From positions 1-38,256 of the forward strand of contig JAPNTN010000099.1 in the NCBI GenBank assembly GCA_027249445.1: 38,256 nt of DNA. The letters run 5' to 3'. Positions within the stretch are counted from its first letter, which is position 1. Every line of letters begins with the position of its first letter. The stretch is from Dehalococcoidia bacterium. GTDB taxonomy: Bacteria; Chloroflexota; Dehalococcoidia; Lucifugimonadales; UBA3495. Shown here one piece after another: positions 8,383-25,449 of the stretch. The position numbers and the translations under genes are program-made. Under the pieces are notes generated by a model. The model ran no database searches. It had not been told where the DNA came from and was given only the letters and a program-made list of their open reading frames with translations.

Positions 8383-8580
8383 TTAGTCTTGTGATACTCC
8401 TCTTTCTTTCATGATAGTTAGTATCCTGGCAATGGTCCGACGAGTCTTCCTGACTTGATTAGTATCCACCAACTGGTTAGTCGCTGTCTGAAATCGTAGA
8501 CCCATTAATTCTTTGTGAAGCCCCTCAAGTTCTTCTTGAAGTTGCTGGTCGTTTAATTCTCTAAGTTCTCTTACTTGCAT
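8383..8580 (-). CDS. rpmC: 50S ribosomal protein L29
   Basis: 65-aa helical ORF, ELRELNDQQLQEELEGLHKELMGLRFQ, typical uL29. Between rplP and rpsQ. Confidence 0.95.
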   Translation of the reverse strand: MQVRELRELNDQQLQEELEGLHKELMGLRFQTATNQLVDTNQVRKTRRTIARILTIMKERGVSQD

Positions 8581-8590
8581 TTTGTCTTAG

Positions 8591-9031
8591 TTATCCCTCA
8601 GATTTTCCTGTTAATTCTCTGATACGATCTCTGCGGACAGTTTTGGTAGGGATTGGTAGCTTATACGAAGCTAGTTTAAGGGCCCTCATAGCTTGTTCTT
8701 CAGATACGCCGCCAACCTCAAACAATATTTTTCCTGGACGTACAACTGCTGCCCAATATTCGTTAGCTGCTTTTCCACCACCCATTCTAACTTCAGCAGG
8801 TTTCTTGCTAACTGGTTTATCAGGAAATACCCTTATCCATACTTGCCCTCCGCGCTGAAGGGATCGGGTTATGGCAACACGAGCTGACTCGATTTGGCGT
8901 GCTGTTATCCAGTCGGCCTCTAAAGCCTTTAGCCCGTATTCACCAAAGCTAACGCTACTACCAGTTGTGGCAGTACCTTTGCGTTTTCCTCGAAATGCTT
9001 TTCTATATTTGGTTCGTTTTGGCTGTAGCAT
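8591..9031 (-). CDS. rplP: 50S ribosomal protein L16
   Basis: 146-aa ORF starting [15 protein letters not shown], with [24 protein letters not shown]-like block. Confidence 0.97.
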
Positions 9032-9054
9032 CTTTTTGTATGCACTATCCTTTT

Positions 9055-9810
9055 CTAATCGGTTTCTTCGGTGGCGAGGTCCTCATCTATTATGATGGTA
9101 TCTTCTTCGCCGGTGTCTACACGGACTTCTATTGTGTCTAATTCTTCCTCTTCAAGGGCTTCTGGGGTTGCCGGCAGTATTTCCCCTTTGTATACCCAGA
9201 CTTTTATTCCAATTCGCCCCATTGAAGTGTGCGCTTCTGCTAATGCGTAGTCTATATCGGCTCTGAGTGTATGTAGTGGGACTTGCCCCATCATTAGTTT
9301 TTCTACTCTAGCGATCTCGGCTCCGGAGATCCTGCCTTTAGTAATGACTTTTATACCTTGGGCTCCAGCTTGCATCGCTCTCTGAGCAGCTTGTCTCATT
9401 GCACGCCTATATGCGACTCTACGTTGGAGTTGATCAGCTATGTTGCGCCCTATCAAAAAGGGATCTAACTCCGGTTGCTCTATTTCTATGATATTTAGTT
9501 GTATCCTTCGTTCAGTTATTGATTCTAGTTTTCCTCTAAGCTGTTTTACTCTATCTCCATCTCTTCCAATCAGGATGCCTGGGCGAGCTGAATGGATATT
9601 AATGACACTATCTTGTGCGCCTCGATCTATTTCTACTTTGGCAATGCCTGCATCGGAGAACCCCTTATACTCATTGTATATAGTTTTTCTGAGTCGTAAA
9701 TCCTCTGTGACTAGCTTGCTATAGGAGCTTGCATTGTTAGCATACCAATGCGTTTTCCAATCTTTAATGATCCCTAGTCTAAAACCATACGGGTGCGTCT
9801 TGTGACCCAT
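9055..9810 (-). CDS. rpsC: 30S ribosomal protein S3 with acidic C-terminal tail
   Basis: 251-aa ORF starting [24 protein letters not shown], with a KH domain and [10 protein letters not shown]. Confidence 0.97.
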
Positions 9811-9814
9811 AAAA

Positions 9815-10162
9815 TTAGTTCTCCTCTTCTTGAGTGTCTACGACCACAGTTATATGACTTGAGCGCTTGGTTATCCGACCGATTCTGCCACGTGCACGGG
9901 GCCTGAATCTCTTTAAGGGCTTCGCTTGATCTGCGCTGATTCTGACTATTCTTAGCGAATCTCTGTTTAACATGAGGTTGTTTTCCGCATTAGCTGCAGC
10001 TGACTGTACCACCTTGGATACAACTTTTGCCCAAGGAGAACTTAAGAGGCTTAAAGTGTCGACAGCTTGGTCTACGTTTTGGCCTCTAACCGAGTCTAGG
10101 ATAGGCTTCAACCTTTTTGGAGAAGCTCCAATTTGTTTTGCTACTGCTTGCACTGCTGGCAT
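9815..10162 (-). CDS. rplV: 50S ribosomal protein L22
   Basis: 115-aa ORF with SPKRLKPILDSVRG..V..A...L and RPRARGRIGRITKRSSHITVVV. Confidence 0.96.
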   Translation of the reverse strand: MPAVQAVAKQIGASPKRLKPILDSVRGQNVDQAVDTLSLLSSPWAKVVSKVVQSAAANAENNLMLNRDSLRIVRISADQAKPLKRFRPRARGRIGRITKRSSHITVVVDTQEEEN

Positions 10163-10171
10163 GTCGTTAAA

Positions 10172-10459
10172 CTACCTCATTACCCTAGTGGTTCGTTCTG
10201 ATCTTGCTACATGTCCCCTGTAAGTTCTTGTAGGAGCAAATTCTCCCAATCTATGACCAACCATGTTTTCGGTTATGAATATGGGGATATGCCTCCTGCC
10301 GTCATGAACGCCGATTGTTAGCCCAAGCATTTCAGGCATGATCATGGACGCACGAGACCAAGTTCTTATAACCGTCTGCTCTCCGGATTCTTGGACAGCA
10401 GCTACTTTCTTCATTAGTTTTGCTTCTACAAATGGACCCTTTTTGATGGACCTTGACAT
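10172..10459 (-). CDS. rpsS: 30S ribosomal protein S19
   Basis: 95-aa ORF starting [11 protein letters not shown], with [38 protein letters not shown]. Confidence 0.98.
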
Positions 10460-10465
10460 GTTTGA

Positions 10466-11299
10466 CTACCGCCTTCTTCTCGCTCTTGTAATGAACTTAC
10501 TGGAGCCTTTCTTCTTATTACGTGTCTTGTAACCAAGGGTTGGCTTTCCTGTAGGCGATTTTGGTCCAGGCATGCCAATGGGAGACCTTCCTTCACCGCC
10601 ACCGTGAGGATGATCAACTGGGTTTTTGGCTACTCCGCGCACTTTTGGCCTACGTCCTAGGTGACGACTCCGTCCGGCTTTTCCAAGACTTTCATTTTTG
10701 TGGTCTGGGTTAGACAGTTGACCGATTGTCGCCCTACAGTTCAATAGGACTCGTCGCATCTCGCCAGAGGGAAGGCGTATAAGGACGTATTCTCCCTCCC
10801 TTGATAATACTTGTGCAGACGATCCCGCACTCCTAGCCATCTGACCGCCTCTTTCTGGAGTTAATTCTATATTGTGTACTACTGTACCTGTTGGTATGTT
10901 TCTGAGTTTGAGTGCGTTCCCGGGTTTTATCTCGGATTCTGGGCCAGATGTTATAAATGACCCTACTTCCAGTCCTATCGGCGCTAGTATGTAACTTTTC
11001 TCTCCATCCACATAGTATATTAGAGCTATTCGTGTGCTCCGATTAGGATCATATTCTATTGCCACGACCCTTCCTGGAACGCCCTCTTTGCGTCGTTTAA
11101 AGTCGATGACCCTGTACATTCTCCGTGCACCGCCACCCCTGCTACGGGTGGTGATTTTTCCACGGTTGTTACGTCCTCCGGTTTTTGATAGAGGTGTCAG
11201 CAGCGATTTTTCAGGGCGCTTTTTTGTTATCTCTTCAAATGAAGGACGAACCGCGTTTCTTGTACCTGGTGTTATTGGGCGTAAATTCTTCAATGGCAT
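10466..11299 (-). CDS. rplB: 50S ribosomal protein L2
   Basis: 277-aa ORF with [18 protein letters not shown] and the [20 protein letters not shown] blocks. Confidence 0.98.
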
Positions 11300-11312
11300 A
11301 TTTCTTATCTCT

Positions 11313-11597
11313 TTATAGCCCGTCTACTATGGTGATGCGATCTCCTGCTTTGAGTGTCACCACGGCCTTTTTCTTATCGGGCATTTTCTTTATTCTACTG
11401 CCGTAACGTTTCCGCTTGCCATGAAGTTTGGTTATATTTACATCAGTGACTGTAACGTTGAAATTCTTTTCAACTGCCTCTTTAACCTGAACTTTGTTGG
11501 CAGACATCGCTATCTGAAATGTATATTGCCCTGACTCTTGCAGCAGGGTGCTTTTTTCTGTGATGGTTGGTTTCAATAATACTTGGTGAATGTTCAT
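11313..11597 (-). CDS. rplW: 50S ribosomal protein L23
   Basis: 94-aa ORF with [10 protein letters not shown] and [13 protein letters not shown]. Its ATG overlaps the rplD stop (TAATG). Confidence 0.96.
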
Positions 11598-12361
11598 TAT
11601 TCTGCCTCAGTCGGCTTTGTGGTGGTTCTACGCCGTCTTGGGCGAGGCGTCTCTTCTTCTCCAGTTTGTTCTACGGTTTCACTGGCTAAGTCCACCGGAT
11701 TCTGACCGTTCTCTAGTCTTCTCCCTCCGCGAGTTGGAACAGCGTCCCATATTATGGCTGCTTGCTCTGCCGCACTTTGGGTTATGAGTACGGTTTGCCT
11801 ACGCAATAAATCGTTTGCGTTCAGTTGATTTATTGGGAGTGTCCATATTTTATCAATGTTGTGCGCTGCTTGGATTAGATCTTTGTTTGGCTCGGGCGTT
11901 ATCACTAAAGCAGACCCAGTGATTCCGAGGTTTTTCAATATCTGCACCATGGATTTTGTTTTACCGTCTACGATGTCAAAATTATCTATGCATATTAGAG
12001 ACCCTGATCGAACTTTCTCTGACAATACGCATCGCACGGCCTGCCTGCGCATTCTTGTAGGAATACTCTTACGATAGCTACGAGGGTGTGGCCCGAAAGC
12101 TATCCCTCCGTGCCTCCATTGAGGGGATCTGATACTTCCTTGACGTGCTCTACCAGTGTGTTTTTGTATCCATGGTTTTCTGCCACCACCGGATACTTGC
12201 GCACGGGTCTTAGTGCTATGAGTGCCTTGCCGTTTGTTACCTTGATAGATAACCATAGCCTGGTGAACTAATGAGCGATTCATAGCTGCATCAAAGACTG
12301 TATCTGAGACGGTGACTTCTCCGACGTTGTCACCATTAGAATTTACAACTGTTAACTTCAT
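11597..12361 (-). CDS. rplD: 50S ribosomal protein L4 with about 45-aa mixed-charge C-terminal tail
   Basis: 254-aa ORF with KTRAQVSGGGRKPWIQKHTGRARQGSIRSPQWRHGG, a canonical uL4 loop. Confidence 0.97.
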   Translation of the reverse strand: MKLTVVNSNGDNVGEVTVSDTVFDAAMNRSLVHQAMVIYQGNKRQGTHSTKTRAQVSGGGRKPWIQKHTGRARQGSIRSPQWRHGGIAFGPHPRSYRKSIPTRMRRQAVRCVLSEKVRSGSLICIDNFDIVDGKTKSMVQILKNLGITGSALVITPEPNKDLIQAAHNIDKIWTLPINQLNANDLLRRQTVLITQSAAEQAAIIWDAVPTRGGRRLENGQNPVDLASETVEQTGEEETPRPRRRRTTTKPTEAE

Positions 12362-12375
12362 CTAATTTAGGTCTC

Positions 12376-13008
12376 CTAGTTACTACTCTTAGCAGTTTTT
12401 CCGGTTTTACGAATTGTAACTAGACCGTTAGGGGAACCGGGTACTGCTCCCTTTAGCCATAGCAAATTGCGTTCTGTGTCTATTTTCACTACACGGAGAC
12501 TTTTCACAGTAGTGCGCTCTGCGCCCATGTGGCCTGACATTTTTTGGCCCTTGTACACTCTTCCTGGAGTTGTACCGCCTCCAATAGAACCGGGAGCTCT
12601 AGCTCGATCTGACTGTCCGTGTGTTCTTGGTCCACCACCGAAGCCATGACGCTTCATGGTTCCTGCAAATCCTTTACCTTTCGAGGTTCCAATTACATCT
12701 ACAAGTTCGTCGACAGCAAATATGTCGACTGTTATCTCGTCGCCAACTGAGTGTTCTTCACTATCATCAGCACGAACTTCCTTTATATGTTTGACTGATA
12801 GGCCTTTTAAATGGCCAGTTATGGCTTTGTTCAGATGTTTTGCCTTGCCAAATCCAATCTGAACTGCATTATATCCATCGGTCTCTGTTGTCTTAATTTG
12901 AGTGACAGTGCATGGCCCTGCTTCGATGACAGTGACCGGCATTACGTTACCGCTCTCATCGAATATATGTGTCATGCCTATCTTCTTGCCTAAGAAAGCT
13001 CGAAGCAT
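12376..13008 (-). CDS. rplC: 50S ribosomal protein L3
   Basis: 210-aa ORF with [14 protein letters not shown] and [27 protein letters not shown]. Confidence 0.98.
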
Positions 13009-13026
13009 CGCCTTATCCTAATTAGA

Positions 13027-13338
13027 TTAAAGTTTGATGGAGATATCGACCCCTGCAGGGAGGTTTAATCTCGTTAGTGAATCTATTGTTTTTGAAGTCG
13101 GTTCAAGGATGTCAATCAACCTCTTATGAGTCCTGATCTCAAAATGTTCGCGGGAATCTTTGTCGACATGGGGTCCGCGAATGACACAGAACCTACGAAT
13201 GTGAGTTGGTAATGGCACAGGACCTGCTATTCTCGCCCCAGTTCTTTCAGCAGTCTCGACTATCTGCTCGCTGGAAGTGTCTAGCATCTTGTGATCAAAT
13301 GCTTTTAGTATTATTCGTACTTTTTGACGTGTAACCAT
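13027..13338 (-). CDS. rpsJ: 30S ribosomal protein S10
   Basis: 103-aa ORF with [15 protein letters not shown] and [23 protein letters not shown]. Confidence 0.98.
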
Positions 13339-13372
13339 TTATTATGAATCCCGATTATATCTAATATATATG

Positions 13373-15475
13373 TTATCGCCCTACTACATCCTTGAGGGCG
13401 CCTGCCGGAACAGGTTGGTAGTCTTTGAACTGCATAGTGTAGTTTGCTCGGCCACTCGAAAGTGATCTTAGACTCGTGGTGTAGGAGAACGTCTCTCCTA
13501 GTGGTATTGTTACCTTTACAGTTTGCAGGTCATCCTGAGCTTCGATACTACGTATCTGTGCTCTTCTTGTGCCAAAGTCCCCCAGTATATCGCTGAGGAA
13601 TTCTCCTGGAGTTACTACTTCCATTTCGGCTATAGGCTCCATGAGCACTGGTTTTCCTTTTGGGGCTCCCTCGCGTATTGCTAGCATGCCGGCATTTCGG
13701 AACGCCATCTCCGAGGAATCCACAGGGTGGAAACTCCCGTCAACCAAGGTTATTTTTAAATCTACAAGAGGATACCCTGATAACGGACCATTGTCTAGTG
13801 CTTGACGTACGCCCGATTCAACGGGGTTTATATACTCTCGCGGGATAGCGCCGCCTGTTATCTTATTCTCAAAAGTGATTCCTGCGCCCTGTTCTTGAGG
13901 TTCTATCTCCAGCCATACATGTCCGAATTGGCCGTGTCCGCCACTCTGCCGCACGAACCTGCCTTCTACACGTATAGGCTGAGTCAGAGTTTCTCTGTAG
14001 GATACTTTGGGATTGCCAACCTGGGCATCTACGTTAAATTCTCGTCTCATCCTATCTACTAGTATTTCTAGATGTAGCTCTCCCATGCCAGACATAACAG
14101 TTTGACCAGTTTCTTCGTTAAAGTTAACTAGGAAAGTAGGATCTTCGTCTGATAATTTTCTCAGGGCGTCGGAGAGTTTGTCTTGGTCTGCTCGAGTGGC
14201 TGGTTCTATCGCGACCGATATAACCGGCTGAGGAAATTGCGGGGGCTCCAATATTAGAGGCTGTTCTTCAGTACAGATGGAATCACCTGTGAAAGTGTCT
14301 TTTAGACCTACAGCTGCGCATATATTGCCGGCTGATACGTCCTCTAGTTCTTCCCTGTGATTAGCGTGCATGTGAAGCAGTCTCCCCATGCGTTCTCGTT
14401 TACCCTTGCTGACATTCGTAACAGATTGTCCGGCTTTGACTTTTCCAGAATACACTCTAATGAAAACTACTCTTCCAACGAATGGATCTGTCATTACCTT
14501 AAATGCTAGAGCCGATAGAGGTTGTTCTTCATCAGGGTATCTTAATTCGATTTCTTCTGTTTTTGGGTCTGTCCCTTCAACGGGTGGGACATCTAATGGC
14601 GATGGTAGGTATTCTAATATCGCGTCCAGTAATGGCTGTATGCCTTTGCCTCGAAGGGCAGTCCCACACAGTACAGGGACGACTTGCTGTTGTATGGTAG
14701 CCTCGCGGAGGGCACTTTTCAGGTCGCTTGCTTCGATTTCTTCGCCTTCCAGATAGCGAATCATAAGATTTTCATCAGTTTCCACGATTTTCTCTATCAT
14801 GGTCTGTCGATATTGTTCATATTCGTCGGCGTAGTTGTCAGGAACGGGCCCAATCTCTGGGTGGTCAAAACCTGAATCATTACCAATGGTTGTAGGGGTA
14901 GTGTATGTGTAAGCTTGTCCTTCTATCAGGTCAATAATGCCCTGGAATTTGTCTTCTGAGCCCATTGGTAGCTGTATAGGCACTGGATTAGCCTTTAGCC
15001 GGCTTTTCATGGTGTCCATTGCTCTGTCGTAACTTGCCCCAACTCTGTCCATTTTATTGACAAAGGCAAGCCGCGGAACATGGTATGTATCTGCTTGGCG
15101 CCATACTGTTTCAGATTGAGGTTGTACTCCAGCTACGGCGTCTAATACTATGATCCCACCGTCTAGTACCCTCAGGCTGCGTTCTACTTCTGCGGTGAAG
15201 TCCACGTGGCCAGGGGTGTCTATGATATTGATCCTATTATCATTCCAATAAGTGGTAGTGGCTGCGGAAGTGATAGTTATGCCACGCTCTTTCTCTTGTG
15301 GCATCCAGTCCATAGCAGTGGTACCTTCATCAACTCCGCCGACTTTGCGAATTCTGCCTGTGAGATAAAGAGTTCTCTCGGTTACTGTGGTTTTGCCTGC
15401 GTCAATGTGCGCGATAAATCCAATATTTCTGATTTTGTCTATGGGAAAATTATTATCCACGGTCTGTATTTGCAA
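13373..15475 (-). CDS. fusA: Elongation factor G
   Basis: 700-aa ORF with G1 AHIDAGKTT, G3 DTPGHVDF and G4 NKMD. Between rpsG and rpsJ. The start could be TTG at 15475 or GTG at 15460. Confidence 0.97.
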   Translation of the reverse strand: MQIQTVDNNFPIDKIRNIGFIAHIDAGKTTVTERTLYLTGRIRKVGGVDEGTTAMDWMPQEKERGITITSAATTTYWNDNRINIIDTPGHVDFTAEVERSLRVLDGGIIVLDAVAGVQPQSETVWRQADTYHVPRLAFVNKMDRVGASYDRAMDTMKSRLKANPVPIQLPMGSEDKFQGIIDLIEGQAYTYTTPTTIGNDSGFDHPEIGPVPDNYADEYEQYRQTMIEKIVETDENLMIRYLEGEEIEASDLKSALREATIQQQVVPVLCGTALRGKGIQPLLDAILEYLPSPLDVPPVEGTDPKTEEIELRYPDEEQPLSALAFKVMTDPFVGRVVFIRVYSGKVKAGQSVTNVSKGKRERMGRLLHMHANHREELEDVSAGNICAAVGLKDTFTGDSICTEEQPLILEPPQFPQPVISVAIEPATRADQDKLSDALRKLSDEDPTFLVNFNEETGQTVMSGMGELHLEILVDRMRREFNVDAQVGNPKVSYRETLTQPIRVEGRFVRQSGGHGQFGHVWLEIEPQEQGAGITFENKITGGAIPREYINPVESGVRQALDNGPLSGYPLVDLKITLVDGSFHPVDSSEMAFRNAGMLAIREGAPKGKPVLMEPIAEMEVVTPGEFLSDILGDFGTRRAQIRSIEAQDDLQTVKVTIPLGETFSYTTSLRSLSSGRANYTMQFKDYQPVPAGALKDVVGR

Positions 15476-15506
15476 CCTCTTGGTCTATAATTTGGTATCC
15501 AGTGAT

Positions 15507-15977
15507 CTATCGACGGTAGTTAACGAATGCCCGGTTAGCCTCCGCCATTCTATGAAGTTCTTCTTTTCTCCGTACGGCAGATCCTTCTCCACGTGAGGCT
15601 GCGAGCAATTCGTTTGCCAGCCTTCTCCCCATTGAACTGCCTTTGGTGCCCCTAGCGCCTCTTATGATTGCCCTCATAGCGAGAGCTTCGCTACGCTTCG
15701 GTTCTAATTCAGTGGGGACTTGATACGTAGCCCCTCCGATTCTTCTTGGCTTAACTTCCACGACAGGCGTGGCGTTACGCATCGCCTGGTCAAATATTTC
15801 TATAGGATCTCTGTGTGATTCATCCTGTACTAGGGTCAGTGCGCCGTAAACGACCCGTTGTGCTGTAGATTTTTTTCCATTTAGCATTACTCGGTTGATG
15901 AATCTAGCTAGCACCTGATTGTTATACATTGGGTCAGGAGATATTATTCTTGGTTCTGCGCGTCTTCTTCGTGACAT
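15507..15977 (-). CDS. rpsG: 30S ribosomal protein S7
   Basis: 156-aa ORF starting MSRRRRAEPR, with GKKSTAQRVVYGAL and RRIGGATYQVP. Confidence 0.98.
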   Translation of the reverse strand: MSRRRRAEPRIISPDPMYNNQVLARFINRVMLNGKKSTAQRVVYGALTLVQDESHRDPIEIFDQAMRNATPVVEVKPRRIGGATYQVPTELEPKRSEALAMRAIIRGARGTKGSSMGRRLANELLAASRGEGSAVRRKEELHRMAEANRAFVNYRR

Positions 15978-16066
15978 ACGTCAAGCACACCTTTTACTTT
16001 CTAGCCCTGAGTAGGGCCGTGAGTTTACAAAATAATTTATTGAAGAGTCTGTTAACCAGGATACAG

Positions 16067-16474
16067 TTACTTTGTAGTCCCGTACTTGCTTCGTCCTCTT
16101 CGACGGCCTTCAACGCCTTCTGTATCAAGGGCGGCGCGTACCACGTGATACCGCACGCCGGGTAAATCCTTTACTCTGCCACCCCTTATTAATACAACGG
16201 AGTGTTCTTGCAGATTATGTCCTTCACCGCCAATGTATGCTGTCACTTCTACTCCGTTTGTTAGCCTGACTCGACAGATTTTACGTAAAGCAGAGTTGGG
16301 CTTTTTAGGAGTCATTGTCCGTACTTGGACACAAACCCCGCGTCGTTGAGGGCAGCCATCACCCCACTTAACCCTGTTCTTGAGAGAGTTTTGGACCCAG
16401 TGAAGGGCGGGTGCCTTGGTGGCCTTCTTTTGGGGCTTACGACCTTTCCGTACTAGTTGATTTACTGTAGGCAT
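16067..16474 (-). CDS. rpsL: 30S ribosomal protein S12 (with about 14-aa internal insertion)
   Basis: 135-aa ORF starting [13 protein letters not shown], with [11 protein letters not shown] and [13 protein letters not shown]. There is extra [14 protein letters not shown] between PAL and CPQRRG. Confidence 0.97.
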
Positions 16475-16551: not shown

Positions 16552-16580
16552 TTGACAGTCAAATTTTCTCAGTCTAGAAT
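16552..16580 (+). promoter_or_regulatory. Candidate sigma70-type promoter for the thi salvage operon
   Basis: TTGACA (16552-16557), exactly 17 nt, then TAGAAT (16575-16580). The predicted TSS lies about 20 nt before the TPP aptamer. Confidence 0.55.
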
Positions 16581-16605
16581 TCGGTTCACTGAACATAATT
16601 ATATG

Positions 16606-16704
16606 GCAAGTAGGGGAGCTTGATTAAGTCAGGCTGAGAGGGCGAACGTAATATCGCCGACCCTTGCGAACCTGATCTGGATAATGCCAGCGAAGGGAAA
16701 AGGC
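16606..16704 (+). promoter_or_regulatory. TPP (THI-box) riboswitch aptamer
   Basis: GGGGAGC..(stem)..GGCTGAGAG..(stem)..ACCCTTGCGAACCTGATCTGGATAATGCCAGCGAAGGGAA reproduces the conserved CUGAGA, ACCC and GAACCUGAUCUGGAUAAUGCCAGCG.AGGGA blocks of the TPP riboswitch. It lies upstream of thiamin salvage genes. Confidence 0.92.
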
Positions 16705-16720
16705 TTTTAGGTGCTTATAA

Positions 16721-16800: not shown

Positions 16801-17580
16801 ATGATATCAGAGCAACATACGTCTGAGTGCATAAATATAAGTGCTTTGACCAAGACTTATGTAGTAAACGGGACTACAGAGTTGATCTTATCCGATATTG
16901 ATTTATCCGTAGAAGAACGGGGGTTTGTAAGCGTGGTGGGTCCCAGTGGTTGTGGAAAAAGTACGCTTTTGAACATCATCGCGGGTTTAGATGAGCCCGA
17001 CTCAGGATCCATATACATTAAGGGAATTAATGGGCCCCGATTGGGTAAAATTGGATATATGCAGCAAAAGGATCTGCTGTTGCCTTGGAGAACTGTCTTA
17101 GAGAATGCTGCACTCGGATTAGAGACGCAAGGGATGTCTAAGAAGGATGCCAGAGAGAGGGTCCTGTCTGAGATAGAAACGTTCGGGTTGTCCGGCTATG
17201 AGAACATGTACCCCTATTCGTTGTCAGGGGGTATGCGCCAGAGGGTAGCTTTTCTGAGAACCATGGTAATGGATCAATCTATAGTGCTACTTGATGAGCC
17301 TTTCGGTGCCTTGGACTCTCTCACTAGAGTACAGATGCAGAGATGGTTGCTCGATATATGGGAAGTGATGAATAAGACAATACTGTTGGTGACACATGAT
17401 GTTGATGAGGCTTTGTTTTTGTCGGATACCATATGTCTTTTATCGGCTAGGCCTGGTGCTAACGCTTCCACGATGAATGTTGACTTACCGAGGCCTAGAG
17501 AGAGCCATATGTTGAGTAAACCTGAGTTCTTCACAATGAGGCAAGATGTATTGTCTGGCTTGTGGTCATATATCGATTAA
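16801..17580 (+). CDS. thiZ: ABC transporter ATP-binding protein (NitT/TauT family), predicted thiamin-pyrimidine (HMP/FAMP) importer ATPase
   Basis: Walker A GPSGCGKST, signature LSGGMRQRV, Walker B LLDEPFGALD. First gene after the TPP riboswitch. The substrate is inferred from context. Confidence 0.8.
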   Translation: MISEQHTSECINISALTKTYVVNGTTELILSDIDLSVEERGFVSVVGPSGCGKSTLLNIIAGLDEPDSGSIYIKGINGPRLGKIGYMQQKDLLLPWRTVLENAALGLETQGMSKKDARERVLSEIETFGLSGYENMYPYSLSGGMRQRVAFLRTMVMDQSIVLLDEPFGALDSLTRVQMQRWLLDIWEVMNKTILLVTHDVDEALFLSDTICLLSARPGANASTMNVDLPRPRESHMLSKPEFFTMRQDVLSGLWSYID

Positions 17581-18398
17581 AAGTTGGTGTGATAATAGGG
17601 TTATTCAATAAATATAAGATAGCCACCTTGGCAGAGTGGGTGATTCCTGGCTTGATCATTTTGGGATTAGTAGTCTTATGGGAAGTGTGTGTGAGGACGA
17701 TGTCTATTCCCGCTTGGCAGTTGCCACCGCCGTCGTCGATCCTAGTTGAATTAGTAGCAAGCATTGATTTACTTTGGCAACACACTGTAGTAACGGTGCT
17801 GGAGATAGTTATAGGATTTGCTATCTCTCTAGTAGTAGGGTTGGTTCTATCGGCTGGGATAGCGTATTCATCACTTCTGCAACGGTCCATTTATCCGATT
17901 GTGATTAGTTCTCAGACAGTACCAATAATTGCGATTGCGCCACTGTTGTTGATCTGGGTTGGATACGGATTGGCTCCGAAGGTGATAATTGTTGCAATAA
18001 TTTGTTTCTATCCGATCGTGGTAAATACTGTTGACGGTTTAAAGGCGATTGATCCTGACATGGTTAATATGATGAGAGCTTTAGGAGCCACAAAGTTTGA
18101 AGTCTTTCGCAAGTTGCAAATCCCCACAGCCCTACCGTTTATATTCTCTGGTATTAAAATTAGCATATCAGTAAGTGTCATAGCAGCTGTTATAGGTGAA
18201 TGGGTTGGGGCTAGTGAGGGATTGGGATATTTAATTATATATTCGCAACCACTGTTTCTAACGTCGAGAGTGTTCGCAGCTATACTAATTTTAGCTGTTC
18301 TGGGAGTGAGTTTGTTCGTAATTGCTGTTCTGTTGGAACGCCTCTCGATGCCTTGGTATTTCAATGAAAAGCGGGCGTCTACTATAAGGAAATTGTAG
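17562..18398 (+). CDS. thiX: ABC transporter permease, predicted thiamin-pyrimidine importer
   Basis: 278-aa multi-TM ORF with an EAA-like loop (MMRALGATKFEVFRKLQIPTALP). GTG start overlapping thiZ by 19 nt. An alternative in-frame GTG at 17589 is possible. Confidence 0.8.
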   Translation: MVIYRLKVGVIIGLFNKYKIATLAEWVIPGLIILGLVVLWEVCVRTMSIPAWQLPPPSSILVELVASIDLLWQHTVVTVLEIVIGFAISLVVGLVLSAGIAYSSLLQRSIYPIVISSQTVPIIAIAPLLLIWVGYGLAPKVIIVAIICFYPIVVNTVDGLKAIDPDMVNMMRALGATKFEVFRKLQIPTALPFIFSGIKISISVSVIAAVIGEWVGASEGLGYLIIYSQPLFLTSRVFAAILILAVLGVSLFVIAVLLERLSMPWYFNEKRASTIRKL

Positions 18399-18456: not shown

Positions 18457-19467
18457 ATGTTGTTGAAATTCAGTCGACTGGTAGTAGTAATTATGCTTTT
18501 ATGTGGATTAAGTATATTGGGAATAGCTTGTTCCCAATTTAACGATGCTGCAGATGCTGAATTAGTACCAGTTTCCATAGCTCTAGACTGGTTTCCATGG
18601 GCTAACCACTCTGGCTTGTATGTAGCAAAGGAGAGAGGGTATTTTGAGGAGGAAGGATTAGATGTAAGTATTTATGTTCCGGGTGATCCTTCAACGGTTT
18701 TGCAGACCGTGGCTGCTGGTAAAGATGACTTTGGTATCAGTTATCAACCCGAAGTTCTAATCGCCAGAGAGCAGGATATACCAGTTGTATCTATAATGGC
18801 GATGGTTCAACACCCATTAAATTCTGTGATGGCATTGGAGGAGTCTGGCATTGTTACTCCGAAGGACCTCGAAGGGAAAAAAGTTGGGTCGCCAGGGGTC
18901 CCGTCGGATGACGCTCTCATTGACTCGGTATTAAGAAATGAAGGGTTAACGATTGACGATGTGGAAATGGTTAATGTTGGTTATGATTTGGTAGCTGCAT
19001 TGCTGGCCAAAAGGGTGGACGCAATAATTGGCGCATATTGGGTCCACGAATCCATATCAGCCACTAATCAGGGATATGAATTAAATATCATGAAAATGGA
19101 AGAGAATGGGGTGCCTGATTATTATGAGCTGGTCATAGTTGCTAGCGAATCTAAAATCTCGGAAAGACCTGAGGTTGTTCAGAAATTCGTCAATGGTGTT
19201 ATGAAGGGCTATAAGGATGCTATGGATGATCCCCTGGATGCTGTGGCTCTACTAAAAGAATTGAAGCCGGAGACTGACCTTGAGATAGAAAACCCTGGCG
19301 TTAAGTTGTTGGCCCCATTGTGGTCTACGGAAAATGGCGTGTTCGGTTGGCAAGAAAATGATAGATGGGAAGAATTTGCTCAGTGGATGGTGGAGGCAGG
19401 AAGATTATCTGATTCATCTGGTAGCTCCGAAGCTTTCACAAATAAATTTGTAGCCGATAGCAAGTGA
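18457..19467 (+). CDS. thiY: NMT1/THI5-like substrate-binding lipoprotein, predicted HMP/formylaminopyrimidine binder
   Basis: Signal peptide plus lipobox (LGIAC). LDWFPWANHSGLYVAKERGYFEEEGLDVSIYVPGDPS..AAGKDDFGISYQ matches the NMT1/THI5/ThiY family pattern. AAGGAAG SD. Confidence 0.82.
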   Translation: MLLKFSRLVVVIMLLCGLSILGIACSQFNDAADAELVPVSIALDWFPWANHSGLYVAKERGYFEEEGLDVSIYVPGDPSTVLQTVAAGKDDFGISYQPEVLIAREQDIPVVSIMAMVQHPLNSVMALEESGIVTPKDLEGKKVGSPGVPSDDALIDSVLRNEGLTIDDVEMVNVGYDLVAALLAKRVDAIIGAYWVHESISATNQGYELNIMKMEENGVPDYYELVIVASESKISERPEVVQKFVNGVMKGYKDAMDDPLDAVALLKELKPETDLEIENPGVKLLAPLWSTENGVFGWQENDRWEEFAQWMVEAGRLSDSSGSSEAFTNKFVADSK

Positions 19468-19546: not shown

Positions 19547-19906
19547 ATGCCATTATATTTTCTGCTTGGTACGTTGAATGAGAATGGGCAAAGCATGTTA
19601 CTTAACAATCCTGATTTGGTTATAGATGCCATAAAGGACTGTGATTGTGATGAGGCCCAAATACTTGGTAAATATTTCGTTCTGGGACGCTGTGACTATG
19701 TGATGTTAATCGAAGCCGACGATAATGAGGCTGTTGGTAAACTAGCAATAGAGATAGGTGTCAAAGCGGGGCTGCATACTGAAACTTTGCCCGCAATGGC
19801 AATTGGAGATATGGCGGAAGGCGATAACTTAGCTAGTGGTTCGGATTTTGATTCAGTAGATATTGTGGCTGGAGAAGAATGGAGATTGCCTGGAAGCGAA
19901 TCCTAG
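19547..19906 (+). CDS. GYD-domain family protein (function unknown) with acidic C-terminal tail
   Basis: 119-aa ORF with AGAGG SD. MPLYFLLGTLNENG...ILGKYFVLGRCDYVMLIEADDNEAVGKLAIEIGVKAGLHTETLPAMAI follows the GYD-family pattern as I remember it. Family call is by eye only. Confidence 0.7.
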   Translation: MPLYFLLGTLNENGQSMLLNNPDLVIDAIKDCDCDEAQILGKYFVLGRCDYVMLIEADDNEAVGKLAIEIGVKAGLHTETLPAMAIGDMAEGDNLASGSDFDSVDIVAGEEWRLPGSES

Positions 19907-19918: not shown

Positions 19919-20566
19919 ATGAGTACATCTGAAGATCTTAGAAGCACTGTATCAGACGTTTGGGATAGGGTGGTTAATCACAAGTTTGTGAATGAATTGG
20001 GTAGCGGGACGCTTGCTACCGCGGTATTTAATGATTATTTTGATCAAGATTATCTGTTTCTAAGAGATTGGGCAATATTGCTGGGAATGGCATCTGTTAA
20101 ATCCCCTGATTTTCATAGCTCACGGCAGATTGTTGGCTTTTTACATCTTGGTTTGGGTGGGGAAGAAGGGCTGTTTCAGAGGGCATTCAGGGAACGTGGG
20201 TTAGATCAAACGTCGATTTTATCCATGGAATATTTTCCAGATACACTTAACTACAGTGGATATCTTAGGACATGTGCTTATGAGGGATCGTTTATAGACG
20301 TTATTGTGACTTTATTGGCAGTTGAATGGCCATATTTGAATTGGGCAGAGAGGTTGTTTAACGCTGGTATGAATCCTGGTAACTATTACTATAAAACATG
20401 GATAGATATACATGTTAGTGATGGTATGTACGCCTTTGTTAATTGGATGATAGAGACTGTGGACAATCACGTTTTTACAGACGTAGAACGACACAGAGCA
20501 GAACAAATCTTCGCTAACGTCCTACGATTTGAAGAGATATTTTTTGATATGTGTTACAAGGACTAG
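19919..20566 (+). CDS. tenA: TenA-family aminopyrimidine aminohydrolase (thiaminase II), apparently the Cys-less TenA_E type
   Basis: 215-aa helical ORF with [28 protein letters not shown] and [11 protein letters not shown], typical of TenA/PqqC-like proteins. Operon context with thiD. Confidence 0.85.
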
Positions 20567-20568
20567 AC

Positions 20569-21378
20569 ATGACCACGAGCAACAAACGGACAATTCCTAG
20601 TGCTATGACTATAGCCGGGTCGGACTCTGGAGGAGGGGCTGGGATACAGGCAGATTTGAAGACCTTTTCTGCTCTAGGTGTTTTTGGAACATCATGTATA
20701 ACGGCTATAACTGCGCAAAATACGGTTGGTGTGAGAGGTATCCATGAAATACCAGAGGAACTCATTGCAGATCAGATCACATGTGTTTTGGAAGACATAG
20801 GAGCTGATGCAGTTAAGACCGGTATGTTGTCGAGCATTGGAATAGTTGAGACTGTTTCTACTGAATTGAGCAAACATGACGTAGCAAATCTGGTAGTAGA
20901 TCCGGTAATGATAGCTAAGAGTGGAGATGCTTTGCTTAAGAGTGAAGCAGTTCAGGCTGTGAGGGATTTGATGTTACCGCTGGCGACTGTTGTGACTCCT
21001 AACATACCAGAAGCGGAAGTGCTTACTGAATTGAGCATTAATTCTATAGAAGATATGAAAGCTGCCGCAAAAGCGTTGGTAGGCATGGGGTGTAACGCTG
21101 CTGTAGTGAAAGGTGGGCATATGATGGGCCCCGCTTCCGATCTGCTTTATGATGGATCGGAGTATCATGTCTTTTCTGTAGAACGTATAGATACTGTAAA
21201 TACCCACGGGACTGGATGCACCTTTGCGTCTGCTATTGCGGCTGGTTTGGCTAAACGGCTGACATTATATGAATCGGTCTCTGAGGCGAAACAGTATATA
21301 ACTGAGGCAATCCAATCCGAGTTTAATATAGGAAAAGGGCATGGCCCGTTGAACCATTTTCATCGGTTCTGGGAATAG
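20569..21378 (+). CDS. thiD: Hydroxymethylpyrimidine / phosphomethylpyrimidine kinase
   Basis: [27 protein letters not shown] and [17 protein letters not shown] are ThiD hallmarks. I prefer the ATG at 20569 (AAGGA 7 nt upstream, just after the tenA stop) over the track start at 20551. Confidence 0.93.
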
Positions 21379-21404: not shown

Positions 21405-21734
21405 CTAGTCGTACAGCCCTTCATCTGAAAACAATTGCTGGTCCCAGTCTGTATCTTCTCTTCCTATGATATAGCTTGTATAGAGCGAAGCCCCTCTTAT
21501 CCATAGCACGAAGACTGCTCGATCAATAAGTTCAGGATCAAATTCTGTTTGCCTGCCAATTAGTTCGGTTAACCAAGCTATATGGCCTGCCCTGAAAAAT
21601 CTTCGCAGAAACTCTGTGGGCTCATTGTCGGCGAATGAACAAGCTTCAAGTATTTCGAAGGGAAGTTCTGAGCAAAGCATGTTAGGACTTCGAGTTGCTA
21701 GTTGTATGTATGATTCTTCTTCGGCAGTATCCAT
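21405..21734 (-). CDS. Hypothetical protein (109 aa, acidic, no recognisable domain)
   Basis: ORF with ATG 28 nt after the NHL gene stop. Last gene of the minus-strand cluster. No motif I can recognise. Confidence 0.55.
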   Translation of the reverse strand: MDTAEEESYIQLATRSPNMLCSELPFEILEACSFADNEPTEFLRRFFRAGHIAWLTELIGRQTEFDPELIDRAVFVLWIRGASLYTSYIIGREDTDWDQQLFSDEGLYD

Positions 21735-21762
21735 GATGCTAGAAGCAATAGAACATATCTAT

Positions 21763-22812
21763 CTATAAATTTCTTTGGGGCTGGTTGTATTCAGCTAGTT
21801 TATTGTAGATTTGAATCCTATTTCTTTGGGTGTCACCGATAAGAATTTGGCTTTTTACATTGTCGAATACAACGGTTACCGGTAGTGCAAGTCTCCATTC
21901 AGTCTCAGGGTCTTTAACTTCACGACGACGTTGAATGACAGCTGGATTGGCATCTGTCATCATTTGGCTCCACATACTGAGATCTCTGGCATCACCCATC
22001 AAGGAGGTTATGAAACGCCCGTCGGGTGAGTATATCTGTATTCTACTATTTGCCCAGTCACAGACGTAAACATCACCGGAATCGTCAACAGACACATCGG
22101 ATGGTCTGATCAGTTCTCCTCTGCCTGTGCCCGAAGAGCCAAATATAGCCAAGACTTCTCCGGTTGGGCCAAATTTTTGAACTCTGTCATTTTTGTGGTC
22201 TGCCACATAGGTATTGTTTTCTGAATCAATAGCGATCCCCCATGGGGAGTCAAGCATCCCTGGATCACTTCCTTGAGAACCCCATTCACGAATGAAGTCA
22301 CCATCTAGGCTAAACTGGGATATTTTATGTCCGTGACTTTCCACAATATATATTTCTTGTGAATTGCTGATTGCAATGCCAGATGGACCCTGCAATAGAC
22401 TTCCGTCTGGTTTCTTACCTTGCCAGGATTTTAAGAAGTTACCCTCGCTGTCGAATATAGAGACTGAATTCAAAAATTCATCAGATACGAATACCCGTTG
22501 TTCATGGTCTAACGCGATGGCTGATGGCCAGATAAACTCTCCTGCTCCGTCCCCGTATTTTCCGAACTCGGTTAGAAATGCTTCTTCTCCCTGGCCATTT
22601 CCTAGGTTAAATACACCTACTCGCGTCCCTCTGCCAGTTTTATTCCAAGGGACTGAAGCTATATTTTCGCCGCCACGATTTAAAACGTAGATCGTATTAT
22701 TTGGGCCAATAGCAATGCCGTTTATATCTTGAAAGCCAATTCCAGTTATGCCGCCACGACCGAGACAATAACTGTAATCATATACTCTTCCTGCTGCTAT
22801 TTGAGTTACCAT
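21763..22812 (-). CDS. NHL-repeat beta-propeller protein
   Basis: 349-aa ORF with roughly six repeats of the NHL pattern (e.g. GPSGIAISNSQEIYIVESHGHKISQF, SPWGIAIDSENNTYVADHKNDRVQKF, RPSDVSVDDSGDVYVCDWANSRIQIY). No signal peptide. Confidence 0.85.
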   Translation of the reverse strand: MVTQIAAGRVYDYSYCLGRGGITGIGFQDINGIAIGPNNTIYVLNRGGENIASVPWNKTGRGTRVGVFNLGNGQGEEAFLTEFGKYGDGAGEFIWPSAIALDHEQRVFVSDEFLNSVSIFDSEGNFLKSWQGKKPDGSLLQGPSGIAISNSQEIYIVESHGHKISQFSLDGDFIREWGSQGSDPGMLDSPWGIAIDSENNTYVADHKNDRVQKFGPTGEVLAIFGSSGTGRGELIRPSDVSVDDSGDVYVCDWANSRIQIYSPDGRFITSLMGDARDLSMWSQMMTDANPAVIQRRREVKDPETEWRLALPVTVVFDNVKSQILIGDTQRNRIQIYNKLAEYNQPQRNL

Positions 22813-22889
22813 GCAACCTCCGCGGTGTACCGCGTATTGAACAAGTACACAAAGTGGGATTGTTATTTCTATGTGAGAACTTTGGGAGG

Positions 22890-24017
22890 CTAGATGAAAG
22901 CGGGCTTTTCAAACACACCTTTGACTATTGGATTTGCGTCCAGCCCTAACCAATCTTCAATTATTGTGGAGTAGAAGCCTCTAAAATCTAGATTGGGTAC
23001 CAAATCTCCCTGTTGTAATGTCTCCGGCTTTAGAGATGGGTATTCTCCATAAAATCCGCCTTTAACAGGGTCTCCCATTACGAATGCAGCTCCTGCAGCG
23101 CCATGGTCGGTCCCTGAGCCATTGTCTTTTACTCGTCTTCCGAATTCAGAGAACAGAACCATGATGACGTTATCAGCAGCGTCATGCTCCCGCAGATCAT
23201 CAAAGAAATCCCCAATAGCTTGGGATACATCGGTCCATAACTGGGAGAGCATGCCTTCCTGGTTAGCGTGGGAATCAAAACTTCCATAATCGCAATAAAA
23301 TATCCTAGTACCCACGTTCGCTAGATGGATTTGTGCAATGTTTTTCAGACGTCTACCTATTGTGGAATCTGAGTATTCTACGGTAGATGAATACATGCCG
23401 GGAGCCACTTTCAATATGTCCGCACCTTCCATAGCTTCAAGGCCTGTATCCCCTAGGTAATTCATTACGAAGTCTGAACCTACAGTAGGGCTGTACATAC
23501 GGCTAAATCTATCTATAATTTTACTTCTTTGTAACTCGCTTGATATTCCTGTGAGTAGGCCATAGCTTTCAAGATTATCTACAGCTGCTACAGGTACGCC
23601 TGGCAGAGAAACTGCTCTGAACATGCTGGGACCAATACTTACCGTAGTAACTACGTTTTCTTTACGTGGATCAAGGTCTCTAGCAGCCATCCCTAACCAT
23701 CCCTCGGTCCCCATCTTGTCAGGTTCGCATGTGTGCCATATATCCATAGACCTGAAGTGGGATCTGGGAGAGTCGGGATACCCTACTCCGTGGACAACTG
23801 CTACGTTCCCTTGGTTGAATAGATTCTGTATTACTCCCATGCTGGGGTGAAACCCGAGGGAGTCATTAATCTTCAATATGTCTGAGTCAGGGATGCCCAC
23901 AGCCTGACGGGCGTCTCTATACAGCGGGTCTGTGTAGGGTATTACCGTGTTTAGGTAGTCGTTTCCGCCTGATAGTTGAAGAACTACGATTACAGGGTCT
24001 TTTGTAGTAGATGTCAT
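22890..24017 (-). CDS. DUF1501-family protein (sulfatase/alkaline-phosphatase-like), no Tat/Sec signal
   Basis: 375-aa ORF with VIVVLQLSGGNDYLNTVIPY, HGVGYPDSPRSHFRSMDIWHT, GWLG, FDSHANQ and TDHG, matching DUF1501 conserved blocks. Confidence 0.85.
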   Translation of the reverse strand: MTSTTKDPVIVVLQLSGGNDYLNTVIPYTDPLYRDARQAVGIPDSDILKINDSLGFHPSMGVIQNLFNQGNVAVVHGVGYPDSPRSHFRSMDIWHTCEPDKMGTEGWLGMAARDLDPRKENVVTTVSIGPSMFRAVSLPGVPVAAVDNLESYGLLTGISSELQRSKIIDRFSRMYSPTVGSDFVMNYLGDTGLEAMEGADILKVAPGMYSSTVEYSDSTIGRRLKNIAQIHLANVGTRIFYCDYGSFDSHANQEGMLSQLWTDVSQAIGDFFDDLREHDAADNVIMVLFSEFGRRVKDNGSGTDHGAAGAAFVMGDPVKGGFYGEYPSLKPETLQQGDLVPNLDFRGFYSTIIEDWLGLDANPIVKGVFEKPAFI

Positions 24018-24054
24018 AACTTAACCTTTCTAATCAATTGATGTAAATTAATCT

Positions 24055-25449
24055 TTATTGGTATTGGTACTCGCGCGTTGCAACTATTAGTTGCAGCATT
24101 TCTGCGATACGGTCCGATGAAATCTTGTCATCCGACCAAGTTAAATCACCTAATTCTGAAGCGTGTCCGACTAGCTGGCCTTTAGTCTCTTCTTGTACTT
24201 CTACTGGCCCAAGTATGTCCAAACACGTGTCAACGAAAGCGCTCACATCGAGATTGCCTTTGGATTTTATTCTGTAGATTATATCTTGTATGCCTGGTTT
24301 CCCTGTGTCTCCTACCATGTCCGCCGTGAAGTTTATACGCTTCATTAACGTACCACTATTAATCCATTCTGACCCTGTATGCCAGCCTTCTACGCTGGGA
24401 GGTCCGAGTAGGTCTTGCCCCATATATCCCGGTTCCTTGGCTAGGTTACCAATACCCGGTTTTGGGAACTCATATCCACCTACTAGTCTCATGGTTCCTA
24501 CTACCACTTCCACTGGGCTCTTGATTTTCTCAAAACGGGCTTCTTTAAAGAATTCGGAATTGAACAGAACTCTCAAAACGGACTTCATATCATAGTTAGA
24601 TTCTCGGAATGTATCAGCCAACAACTGAACAGCCTCTTCATTCCTTGGCGGTTCGACTGACCAAGCTGGCACTTGGGGTTCATCTGCGACGAAGAAATTG
24701 TATAAGTGGCGTGCTATAAATCTACCAGTGGCTGGATGAGCACACACGATATCGATAATATCTTCACCGTTGAAGTTGCCAGTATGGCCTAAGAATGTCT
24801 TTTCGCCTTCGTCGTGGTCTTCCTCTTGGTATTCAAAAGACCAGTCGAATCTACCGGTTCCGCTTCCCCTTGGTATCATCGGGGTGATGGTCCAACCAGT
24901 AAAGGCCCGTGAACATTCCCTGACGTCATCTTCGGTGTAGTTGCCTACTCCCATGCTGAATAATTCGAGGAGTTCTCTCCCCCAATTCTCGTTTACAGCG
25001 TATGAGTGGTTGTCGCAGTTATCCAGCCAGTAGATCATGGCAGGATTTTTGGCTAGTGCAACGAGGAGCTCTCTGTAATCTCCCATGCCCATATCTCTGA
25101 ACATATCTATTTGGTGGATGACCTCGTGGTAATGGTCTATTTTAGAGTAACCAGTAGCGAATACTTGGTGCCAGAAGAGGACCATTTTTTCTTGTAATAC
25201 TCTTTGGGTGCTAACCATGTCGTGTAGCCATCCCGCTCCGCCCATGCCGGACGATGTTATAGGTTTCCAGAAATGCGGGTGGTACCTGAGGAATTCTAGC
25301 CTGTCTGAGCTCAATTGGGTGTCTGGATTTAGTAGTTCTTCAACTGTTGCGTCGTATCCTATGGATGCTCTGCGCTCTAGTTCTGTTCGAGAGGCCCCGA
25401 ATCCAGCCCTACGCATTAAATGAGCAATTAATTCAATATCATTGTTCAT
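24055..25449 (-). CDS. DUF1800-family protein
   Basis: 464-aa ORF. AHLMRRAGFGASRTELE...VEELL, HFWKP, WHQVFAT and NENWGRELLELFSMGVGNYTEDDV match the DUF1800 pattern. It sits directly upstream of DUF1501, the usual pairing. Confidence 0.85.
   Translation of the reverse strand: MNNDIELIAHLMRRAGFGASRTELERRASIGYDATVEELLNPDTQLSSDRLEFLRYHPHFWKPITSSGMGGAGWLHDMVSTQRVLQEKMVLFWHQVFATGYSKIDHYHEVIHQIDMFRDMGMGDYRELLVALAKNPAMIYWLDNCDNHSYAVNENWGRELLELFSMGVGNYTEDDVRECSRAFTGWTITPMIPRGSGTGRFDWSFEYQEEDHDEGEKTFLGHTGNFNGEDIIDIVCAHPATGRFIARHLYNFFVADEPQVPAWSVEPPRNEEAVQLLADTFRESNYDMKSVLRVLFNSEFFKEARFEKIKSPVEVVVGTMRLVGGYEFPKPGIGNLAKEPGYMGQDLLGPPSVEGWHTGSEWINSGTLMKRINFTADMVGDTGKPGIQDIIYRIKSKGNLDVSAFVDTCLDILGPVEVQEETKGQLVGHASELGDLTWSDDKISSDRIAEMLQLIVATREYQYQ

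Follow-up and report, generated by a model that had tools for sequence, protein, structure and literature searches.

A GYD-domain protein subfamily embedded in the thiD-centred thiamin pyrimidine operons of Dehalococcoidia

What does a small protein of the GYD-domain family do in the middle of a riboswitch-controlled thiamin operon? The question is raised by a gene in a 38,256-nt stretch of DNA from a Dehalococcoidia bacterium (assembly GCA_027249445.1, contig JAPNTN010000099.1), hereafter called the window, where a thiamin pyrophosphate (TPP) riboswitch is followed by genes for an ABC transporter ATPase, its permease, a ThiY-like substrate-binding protein, the GYD protein, TenA, and ThiD, the kinase acting on the thiamin pyrimidine HMP (4-amino-5-hydroxymethyl-2-methylpyrimidine) and its phosphate, HMP-P (Table 1). 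A preliminary description, made from the sequence alone, had held that GYD proteins have no assigned function and had proposed this one as a new thiamin-salvage component, possibly replacing the deformylase YlmB, carrying or chaperoning pyrimidines, or assisting TenA. In agreement with the first point, the searchable literature yielded nothing on a function, and a search of about 8.3 million full texts for the GYD domain, COG4274, and PF08734 found nothing linking GYD proteins to thiamin, so the association appears to be unreported. Operons of this type are well known, and what is new is the accessory protein with its build of a GYD core, an acidic tail, and a terminal motif. Here, we show that a monophyletic GYD subfamily is an integral part of the thiD-centred thiamin pyrimidine operons of Dehalococcoidia/SAR202, and we weigh what its role may be.

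The position of the gene was as first described. The 119-codon open reading frame (ORF) is preceded by its own Shine–Dalgarno-like site (AGAGGTG), the end of which lies 2–4 nt 5′ of the ATG, and it starts 79 nt behind the thiY stop (19467) and ends 12 nt before the tenA start (19919). A THI element (RF00059) lies upstream on the same strand, and scanning of the gaps on both sides of the ORF detected no promoter-like or terminator-like site, placing the gene inside the riboswitch-controlled unit, as had been expected. The folding of the 79-nt gap was at the level of shuffled sequence (z = −0.09), which, together with the site scan, rules out a hidden RNA element or terminator in this gap.

Family membership was also borne out. 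PF08734 was the sole Pfam match of the ORF (E ≤ 0.01); it scored 37.2 bits (gathering threshold 31.4; E = 3.1e-9) and covered residues 5–91 and model positions 2–89 of 91; an NCBIfam search matched no model. The sequence GRCDY, previously pointed out as the eponymous G-Y-D motif, occupies residues 47–51 with Cys in place of the middle Tyr. Across an alignment of 35 homologues with 46–80% identity (alignment A1), G47 and D50 are invariant and position 49 is Tyr, Phe, or Cys. A protein search returned 155 homologues, all carrying PF08734 in their precomputed annotation; most of the 120 listed are 118–130 aa long and match over nearly their full length, and the few with a named source are labelled Dehalococcoidia, SAR202, or Chloroflexota. 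The invariant core residues in A1 are Y4, F5, G14, Q15, N21, Y43, G47, D50, D59, N60, G75, E79, T80, P82, and A83, and H77 is kept in at least 90% of the sequences. A metal or redox role is ruled out by the variation of C32, C34, and C49 among homologues. Comparison with two homologues of about 90% identity gave dN/dS values of 0.04–0.06 with saturated dS; dN was 0.01–0.02 in the core and 0.14–0.21 in the C-terminal tail, where the EEWRLP motif was unchanged. GYD conservation was on a par with that of the neighbouring enzymes: the identities at one metagenome locus (L085) were 90% for GYD, 85% for ThiY, and 85% for ThiD, and those at another (L088) were 55% for GYD, 57% for TenA, and 66% for ThiD. 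Together, these results confirm that the ORF is a real, strongly constrained GYD-domain gene.

The linkage of such genes to thiamin genes, a count that the preliminary description had called for, was determined among 182 relatives using one genome per species according to the Genome Taxonomy Database (GTDB); the counts refer to the best 80 loci (L005–L084), which come from metagenome-assembled genomes (MAGs) of Dehalococcoidia/Chloroflexota except for one labelled Acidobacteria (L072) and one labelled "uncultured bacterium" (L069). In 75 of the 80 loci, thiD lay on the same strand no more than 2.5 kb downstream of GYD. Directly behind GYD came thiD (40 loci), tenA (30 loci), or a small uncharacterised ORF (6 loci), with a median gap of 71 nt and overlaps of 4–50 nt in 8 loci. 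Using a covariance model built from three TPP riboswitches, we found a same-strand riboswitch upstream of GYD in 44 of the 80 loci (43 of the 71 having at least 4.5 kb of upstream sequence), and in the riboswitch-bearing loci GYD always stood between the riboswitch and thiD. These results show that GYD lies behind the TPP riboswitch wherever one is present, in the same transcription unit as thiD. Five loci have no thiD downstream; one of them (L056) is cut off by the contig end, and another (L039) belongs to a MAG with two copies, of which this one is a divergent paralogue and the other (L067) is thiD-linked. The remaining three (L059, L071, and L070) are taken up below.

Several of the loci contain further insertions and ORFs around the pair. 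In about six loci (L001 8385–8783, L011, L036, L042, L054, and L077), GYD and thiD are separated by a conserved ORF of about 132 aa, unk132, and one of about 118–122 aa, post118, stands between thiD and ileS in L010 (11237–11602) and about 29 others; neither had a Pfam or NCBIfam match, and neither is present in the window. At L078, a DDE transposase gene (8376–9704; DDE_Tnp_1_4, 438 bits) lies between thiY and GYD, with GYD, TenA, and ThiD left together.

The genes upstream of GYD fall into five contexts. About 30 loci have nothing thiamin-related there and are often divergent from rpsL-rpsG-fusA; about 25 have a ThiXYZ-type ABC importer, as in the window, usually with TenA; 14 have ThiC, the radical-SAM HMP-P synthase of the de novo route (Pfam, 636 bits); 6 have a ThiB-family ABC system (TIGR01254, 271 bits); and 2 have an SSF symporter. 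The constant part across all five is GYD-(TenA)-ThiD. Addition and exchange of riboswitches and supply genes took place repeatedly on the upstream side of GYD, and no such element turned up between it and the kinase. In a neighbour-joining tree built from the GYD cores, the upstream contexts interleave, indicating that operons were rebuilt repeatedly around the GYD–ThiD pair, and the thiD-linked proteins, including a distant clade (P0130), form one clade, to which neither a large paralogue clade nor the generic GYD proteins belong. In addition, the pair occurs outside its usual thiD-ileS-fpg block at six loci (L002, L008, L013, L017, L020, and L060) and twice in one MAG (UBA1141; L048 and L066), one copy behind each transporter. 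A constant GYD-(TenA)-ThiD unit with variable upstream genes links the protein to thiD and the pyrimidine branch and not to salvage or to TenA. The proposal of a new thiamin-salvage component thus held for the linkage to thiamin operons, while its specificity for salvage, ThiY, or TenA did not, given the loci with ThiC, those with GYD-ThiD alone, and the occurrence of TenA in only about 30.

The same data bear on whether GYD might be a passenger, that is, an ordinary small GYD protein that plays no part in thiamin metabolism and stays beside thiD through inherited synteny. The linked loci are those of Dehalococcoidia/Chloroflexota, and synteny with thiD is equally conserved for GYD and for the functionally unrelated ileS and fpg, so adjacency of GYD and thiD within this one class is partly inheritance. 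The case for a function rests instead on how the pair behaves when operons are remodelled, moved, or duplicated, and on the place of GYD within the riboswitch-controlled unit. All insertions of riboswitches, transporters, and ThiC lie upstream of GYD, and none separates it from TenA/ThiD; the pair survived relocation away from ileS and duplication within a genome; its gaps are tight or overlapping; purifying selection on GYD is strong and comparable with that on ThiD; and the linked genes are a distinct clade. On this evidence, we regard the passenger explanation as improbable.

Conversely, a metagenome search with the window ThiD returned 80 loci, and only two of these have a GYD gene, a scarcity that a passenger would also predict. 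One of the two (L088) also has post118 and ileS, typical of Dehalococcoidia loci, and the other (L085) ends inside thiD. Four of the metagenome loci (L086, L089, L091, and L092) encode ThiY, TenA, and ThiD without GYD, and five (L093, L098, L099, L110, and L139) encode ThiY and ThiD without GYD; in both groups the genes for the ABC ATPase and permease are also there wherever the contig extends far enough. Since equivalent operons elsewhere lack it, GYD is a lineage-specific accessory and not a required pathway step, and the two-in-80 count rules it out as a general thiamin pathway component. Taken with the linkage, this is best explained by a subfamily confined to Dehalococcoidia/SAR202-type Chloroflexota that serves as a dedicated accessory of the thiamin pyrimidine branch.

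Relatives of the subfamily delimit this association. The P0130 clade (81 proteins, on contigs of up to 8 Mb) again shows the order GYD-ThiD-ileS-fpg. The sister paralogue clade P0146 (645 proteins from Dehalococcoidia, likewise with acidic tails) is not thiD-linked; its neighbours are phosphofructokinase (PFK), a pair of dihydroorotate (DHO) dehydrogenase and PfkB, or ApbA/DUF885, and at one P0146 locus a thiD lies at a distance of 5 kb and has no GYD beside it. These unrelated neighbours rule out a thiamin link of the wider GYD family for P0146, and paralogues placed beside unrelated enzymes such as PFK, DHO dehydrogenase, and ApbA are again what a passenger would lead one to expect. Tail-bearing paralogues also stand beside kinase genes: one lies 6 nt before a PFK gene (L174, 6001–7385), and another is convergent with a PfkB-family kinase gene (L170, 6001–7381). 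ThiD is itself a ribokinase-fold enzyme, and together these cases hint that pairing with kinases may be a general trait of GYD paralogues.

Fusion proteins were found with other partners. Long GYD proteins are fused to a PurD, acyltransferase, RNB, or restriction-enzyme domain, and none to ThiD or TenA; an apparent 402-aa fusion at L075 was rejected, as it is only the thiD frame remaining open across GYD in another frame. Among P0230, P0220, and P0139, generic GYD domains were joined, or merged by gene calling, to the PurD (glycinamide ribonucleotide synthetase) N and ATP-grasp domains, and a tandem GYD with an acyltransferase was also seen. PurD acts upstream of aminoimidazole ribotide, the substrate of ThiC. 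The PurD–GYD connection may be a coincidence or may belong to a wider purine/thiamin theme.

The preliminary description had further noted that the formylaminopyrimidine (FAMP) route needs YlmB, and had considered GYD as its replacement; the corresponding explanation is that GYD is a pyrimidine-salvage enzyme, either a FAMP deformylase or a different hydrolase or isomerase with the dimeric alpha/beta-barrel architecture. No M20/YlmB-type gene was found in the window, where the scan of the minus-strand ORFs further upstream covered an M24 peptidase gene (830–1636), and a clear YlmB is missing from many marine taxa (PMC10470507). The invariant polar residues of GYD (Y4, Q15, N21, Y43, D50, D59, N60, E79, and T80), together with H77, also count in favour of an enzyme. 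Some dimeric alpha/beta-barrel proteins are indeed enzymes. The GYD protein itself is, however, not of the YlmB type, having 119 aa, no M20 match, and no conserved Cys/His cluster, and it shows no metal-binding or hydrolase signature.

TenA offers another answer to the question of the deformylase. In an alignment to solved TenA structures, the window TenA has Val followed by Glu (LLAVEWPYL) at the position of the catalytic Cys, which reads SCGW in Helicobacter pylori and PCFW in Pyrobaculum; the Glu after Val is as in the Cys-less Streptococcus pneumoniae protein (1z72). All 32 GYD-linked TenAs have A[VM]EW at this site, whereas the thiD-adjacent TenAs of other phyla have PC[MA][WC]. TenA_E enzymes are reported to use FAMP besides the aminopyrimidine and to have high affinity for FAMP (PMC10470507). 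The TenAs of the GYD-less ThiXYZ-TenA-ThiD operons of other lineages are likewise Cys-less ("TEG"). With a Cys-less TenA both here and in operons lacking GYD, the pathway probably has no missing reaction left for GYD to catalyse, and the "missing deformylase" is probably covered by the TenA_E-like enzyme of the window. Moreover, most GYD loci lack both ThiY and TenA, and 14 follow ThiC, where deformylation is not needed. The deformylase proposal therefore came out weak, and we consider an enzymatic role of this kind very unlikely; carrier, chaperone, and accessory roles stay viable. The association of ThiY with Cys-less TenAs is perhaps worth documenting in its own right.

No solved GYD structure was detectable by sequence: queries of the PDB with the ORF, with the A1 profile, and with a generic member of the family all came back without a significant match. 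An AlphaFold2 (AF2) monomer model computed with alignment A1 has a beta-alpha-beta-beta-alpha-beta core and a disordered tail. Among the best 50 of 1596 Foldseek matches in the PDB, the top one was TTHA0845 (2djw; E = 1.8e-4, target TM score 0.73, rmsd 2.7 Å over 85 columns), followed by Lrp/AsnC ligand-binding domains and small stand-alone relatives (2qz8, 1ri7, 4pcq, 2gqq, 2vbw, 2znz, 2e1a, and 2cvi). These RAM-type matches, 2djw included, had a probability of 1.0 and E values from 2e-4 to 3e-3; ribosomal protein S6 and bacterial microcompartment (BMC) shell proteins also appeared, with poorer TM scores. No hydrolase was among these best 50, so the predicted structure points to a RAM-type ligand-binding fold rather than to the enzyme that had been considered. 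The predicted GYD fold is thus that of a small ferredoxin-like domain, and its closest counterparts are ligand-binding domains of the RAM type. In the tail, W112 and P115 are invariant in A1 while the acidic linker before the motif varies; the motif returns as DWRIP in the P0130 clade, and distant thiD-linked relatives retain an acidic or proline-rich tail.

Our preferred reading, put forward tentatively and with somewhat less than even confidence, is that GYD has no catalytic activity and serves ThiD as a ligand-binding partner or as a regulator. Its core of about 85 residues, RAM-like in fold, would bind a thiamin pyrimidine species (HMP, HMP-P, or HMP-PP, the pyrophosphate) or the end product, and the acidic disordered tail would dock through its E-W-x-[LI]-P peptide on a partner, most likely ThiD. 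Through such docking, substrate could be passed on or kinase activity adjusted at the level of the protein; loci without a riboswitch, roughly 45% of the total, would profit most from this role.

Several findings weigh against GYD being a partner of ThiD. Ligand binding and contact with ThiD are a proposal drawn from genomic context and a predicted fold. The RAM-like similarity is modest, with a target TM score of 0.73 for the best match and 0.4–0.5 for the others, and the thiamin-binding folds of YkoF and MTH1187 were not among the best 50 of the 1596 Foldseek matches. The more distant thiD-linked clades have other tail motifs (DDPxWSLTS and ESVxLTPDFTPE), no natural GYD–ThiD fusion was found among 155 + 991 relatives, and all linked loci fall within one class, in which the thiD-ileS-fpg synteny is conserved too. 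Finally, L059 and L071 consist of a riboswitch, a ThiB-family ABC transporter, GYD, and ileS, and L070 of GYD, TenA, and ileS, with no thiD at any of the three. Searches of these loci for a thiD remnant found none. Their GYD genes are intact (L059 10001–10360, L071 10001–10360, and L070 367–726), and tenA was also lost in two. The retention of GYD without thiD at these loci implies that a strictly ThiD-dependent role is not required.

The same three loci favour a different role, in which GYD would be a free cytosolic buffer or carrier of thiamin or its pyrimidines on the supply side, independent of ThiD and analogous to YkoF: two kept GYD behind a riboswitch and a ThiB-family transporter after the loss of TenA and ThiD, and the third kept it with TenA alone. 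GYD also always stands right after the supply genes, and its predicted small ferredoxin-like fold is of a ligand-binding type, as is that of YkoF, a ferredoxin-like thiamin/HMP binder encoded in a TPP-regulated transporter operon. Against a carrier, GYD-ThiD stands in about 30 loci where no transporter, ThiC, or riboswitch is close by; a simple buffer would not be expected to have a conserved motif of the docking type in its tail; GYD has no match to the Pfam YkoF or Thiamine_BP families, and their folds were absent from the 50 Foldseek matches listed; and the ThiXYZ operons of other lineages run without GYD. We consider a carrier possible but rather unlikely.

A bolder extension of the ThiD-partner reading is that the thiD-linked GYD proteins are protein-level thiamin sensors, whose RAM-like domain would bind TPP, HMP-PP, or HMP and whose tail peptide would switch ThiD and perhaps importers, and that the large GYD family is by extension one of metabolite-sensing regulatory subunits. 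We regard this as a long shot. If true, the sensor would be the protein counterpart of the TPP riboswitch, and the GYD family, including hundreds of tail-bearing paralogues beside PFK, PfkB, ApbA, and PurD genes, would comprise unrecognised stand-alone regulatory subunits. Independently of this extension, the linkage gives the widespread GYD family (PF08734/COG4274) its first firm functional context, namely the branch of thiamin synthesis that handles the pyrimidine, with ThiD at its centre. In the dark ocean, thiamin is a scarce, traded nutrient and SAR202 and other Dehalococcoidia abound, and a lineage-specific pyrimidine-handling component could affect competition for HMP, FAMP, and the aminopyrimidine AmMP.

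Table 1. Features of the thiamin operon and of its GYD gene (window positions)
Feature	Positions	Strand	Evidence
Putative sigma-70-like promoter: TTGACA, 17-nt spacer, TAGAAT	16552–16580	+	11/12 consensus positions; identified by consensus match alone
TPP riboswitch aptamer (THI element)	16602–16715	+	RF00059, 64.5 bits (gathering 54.3), full model 1–105
ABC transporter ATPase (ThiZ-like)	16801–17580	+	PF00005; NCBIfam nitrate/sulfonate/taurine-type ATPase
ABC transporter permease (ThiX-like)	17562–18398	+	PF00528; SsuC/TauC-like; 19-nt overlap with ATPase gene
NMT1/THI5-like substrate-binding protein (ThiY-like)	18457–19467	+	PF09084, 249.5 bits
GYD ORF, 119 aa, ATG start	19547–19906	+	PF08734
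GYD folded core, residues 1–85, predicted beta-alpha-beta-beta-alpha-beta	19547–19801	+	PF08734; AF2 pLDDT (predicted local distance difference test) 80–91
GYD acidic disordered C-terminal tail, residues 86–119, and stop codon	19802–19906	+	pLDDT <50 at residues 91–107; variable acidic linker in all relatives
Tail motif EEWRLP, residues 110–115; general form E-W-x-[LI]-P	19874–19891	+	W112 and P115 invariant in 35 sequences
TenA without catalytic cysteine (TenA_E-like)	19919–20566	+	PF03070; Val at Cys position in alignment to Cys-containing TenA structures
ThiD, HMP/HMP-P kinase	20551–21378	+	PF08543, 331.9 bits; TIGR00097, 349 bits (cutoff 205); 16-nt overlap with tenA

The operon has neighbours on both sides in the window. 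A long run of minus-strand ORFs (19–16474) is divergent from it and ends, on the operon side, with rpsL, rpsG, and fusA (S12, S7, and EF-G), named by resemblance to the Pfam-annotated genes of locus L168; this divergent arrangement is kept in many related loci. Downstream, 21405–25449 on the minus strand holds a 109-aa ORF without a family match, convergent with thiD; next come genes for a beta-propeller protein with NHL repeats and for a DUF1501/DUF1800 pair, and the NHL/DUF1501/DUF1800 trio was found again near GYD in L001. A plus-strand gene at 29886–31967 encodes a 693-aa fusion of a dihydrodipicolinate synthase (DHDPS)-family domain with a 4-(hydroxymethyl)-2-furancarboxaldehyde-phosphate (4-HFC-P) synthase domain (MfnB-like, PF04476); this fusion, unusual for a bacterium, is kept downstream of ileS-fpg in several related loci (L001 and L165).

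Among known systems, the formylaminopyrimidine salvage operon of Bacillus halodurans, with thiXYZ, ylmB, tenA, and thiD, is close in gene content. The window operon likewise unites a riboswitch, an NMT1/ThiY-type ABC importer, TenA, and ThiD in one unit, but it has no YlmB, its TenA is of the Cys-less TenA_E-like kind, and it has the additional GYD gene. YkoF and MTH1187 represent thiamin/HMP-binding proteins, and YkoF is encoded in the ykoCDEF operon of Bacillus subtilis. Like YkoF, the GYD protein would be a small cytosolic ferredoxin-like protein without a catalytic signature in a TPP-riboswitch-controlled transporter operon. It differs from the YkoF/MTH1187 type in having no match to PF07615 or PF01910; in addition, it has one domain and a tail where YkoF has a tandem repeat, and its tightest partner is ThiD and not a transporter.

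RAM-type domains, namely the C-terminal domains of Lrp/AsnC proteins and stand-alone members such as TTHA0845, PHS023, and FFRP-DM1, resemble the predicted GYD core in size and topology. They differ from it in that GYD has no PF01037 match and an identity of only 13–27% to them, and they have no known thiamin link, binding amino acids at oligomer interfaces. With the GYD family itself (PF08734/COG4274), the protein shares the G-x-[YFC]-D and E-T-L-P signatures and a core of about 90 residues with the predicted beta-alpha-beta-beta-alpha-beta order. It is nevertheless divergent, scoring 37 bits where generic GYD proteins score 90–160 bits, and generic members, at about 95–102 aa, have no counterpart of its acidic disordered tail of 30–45 residues with a conserved terminal motif. 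Among the GYD clades, this is the only one found tied to thiD.

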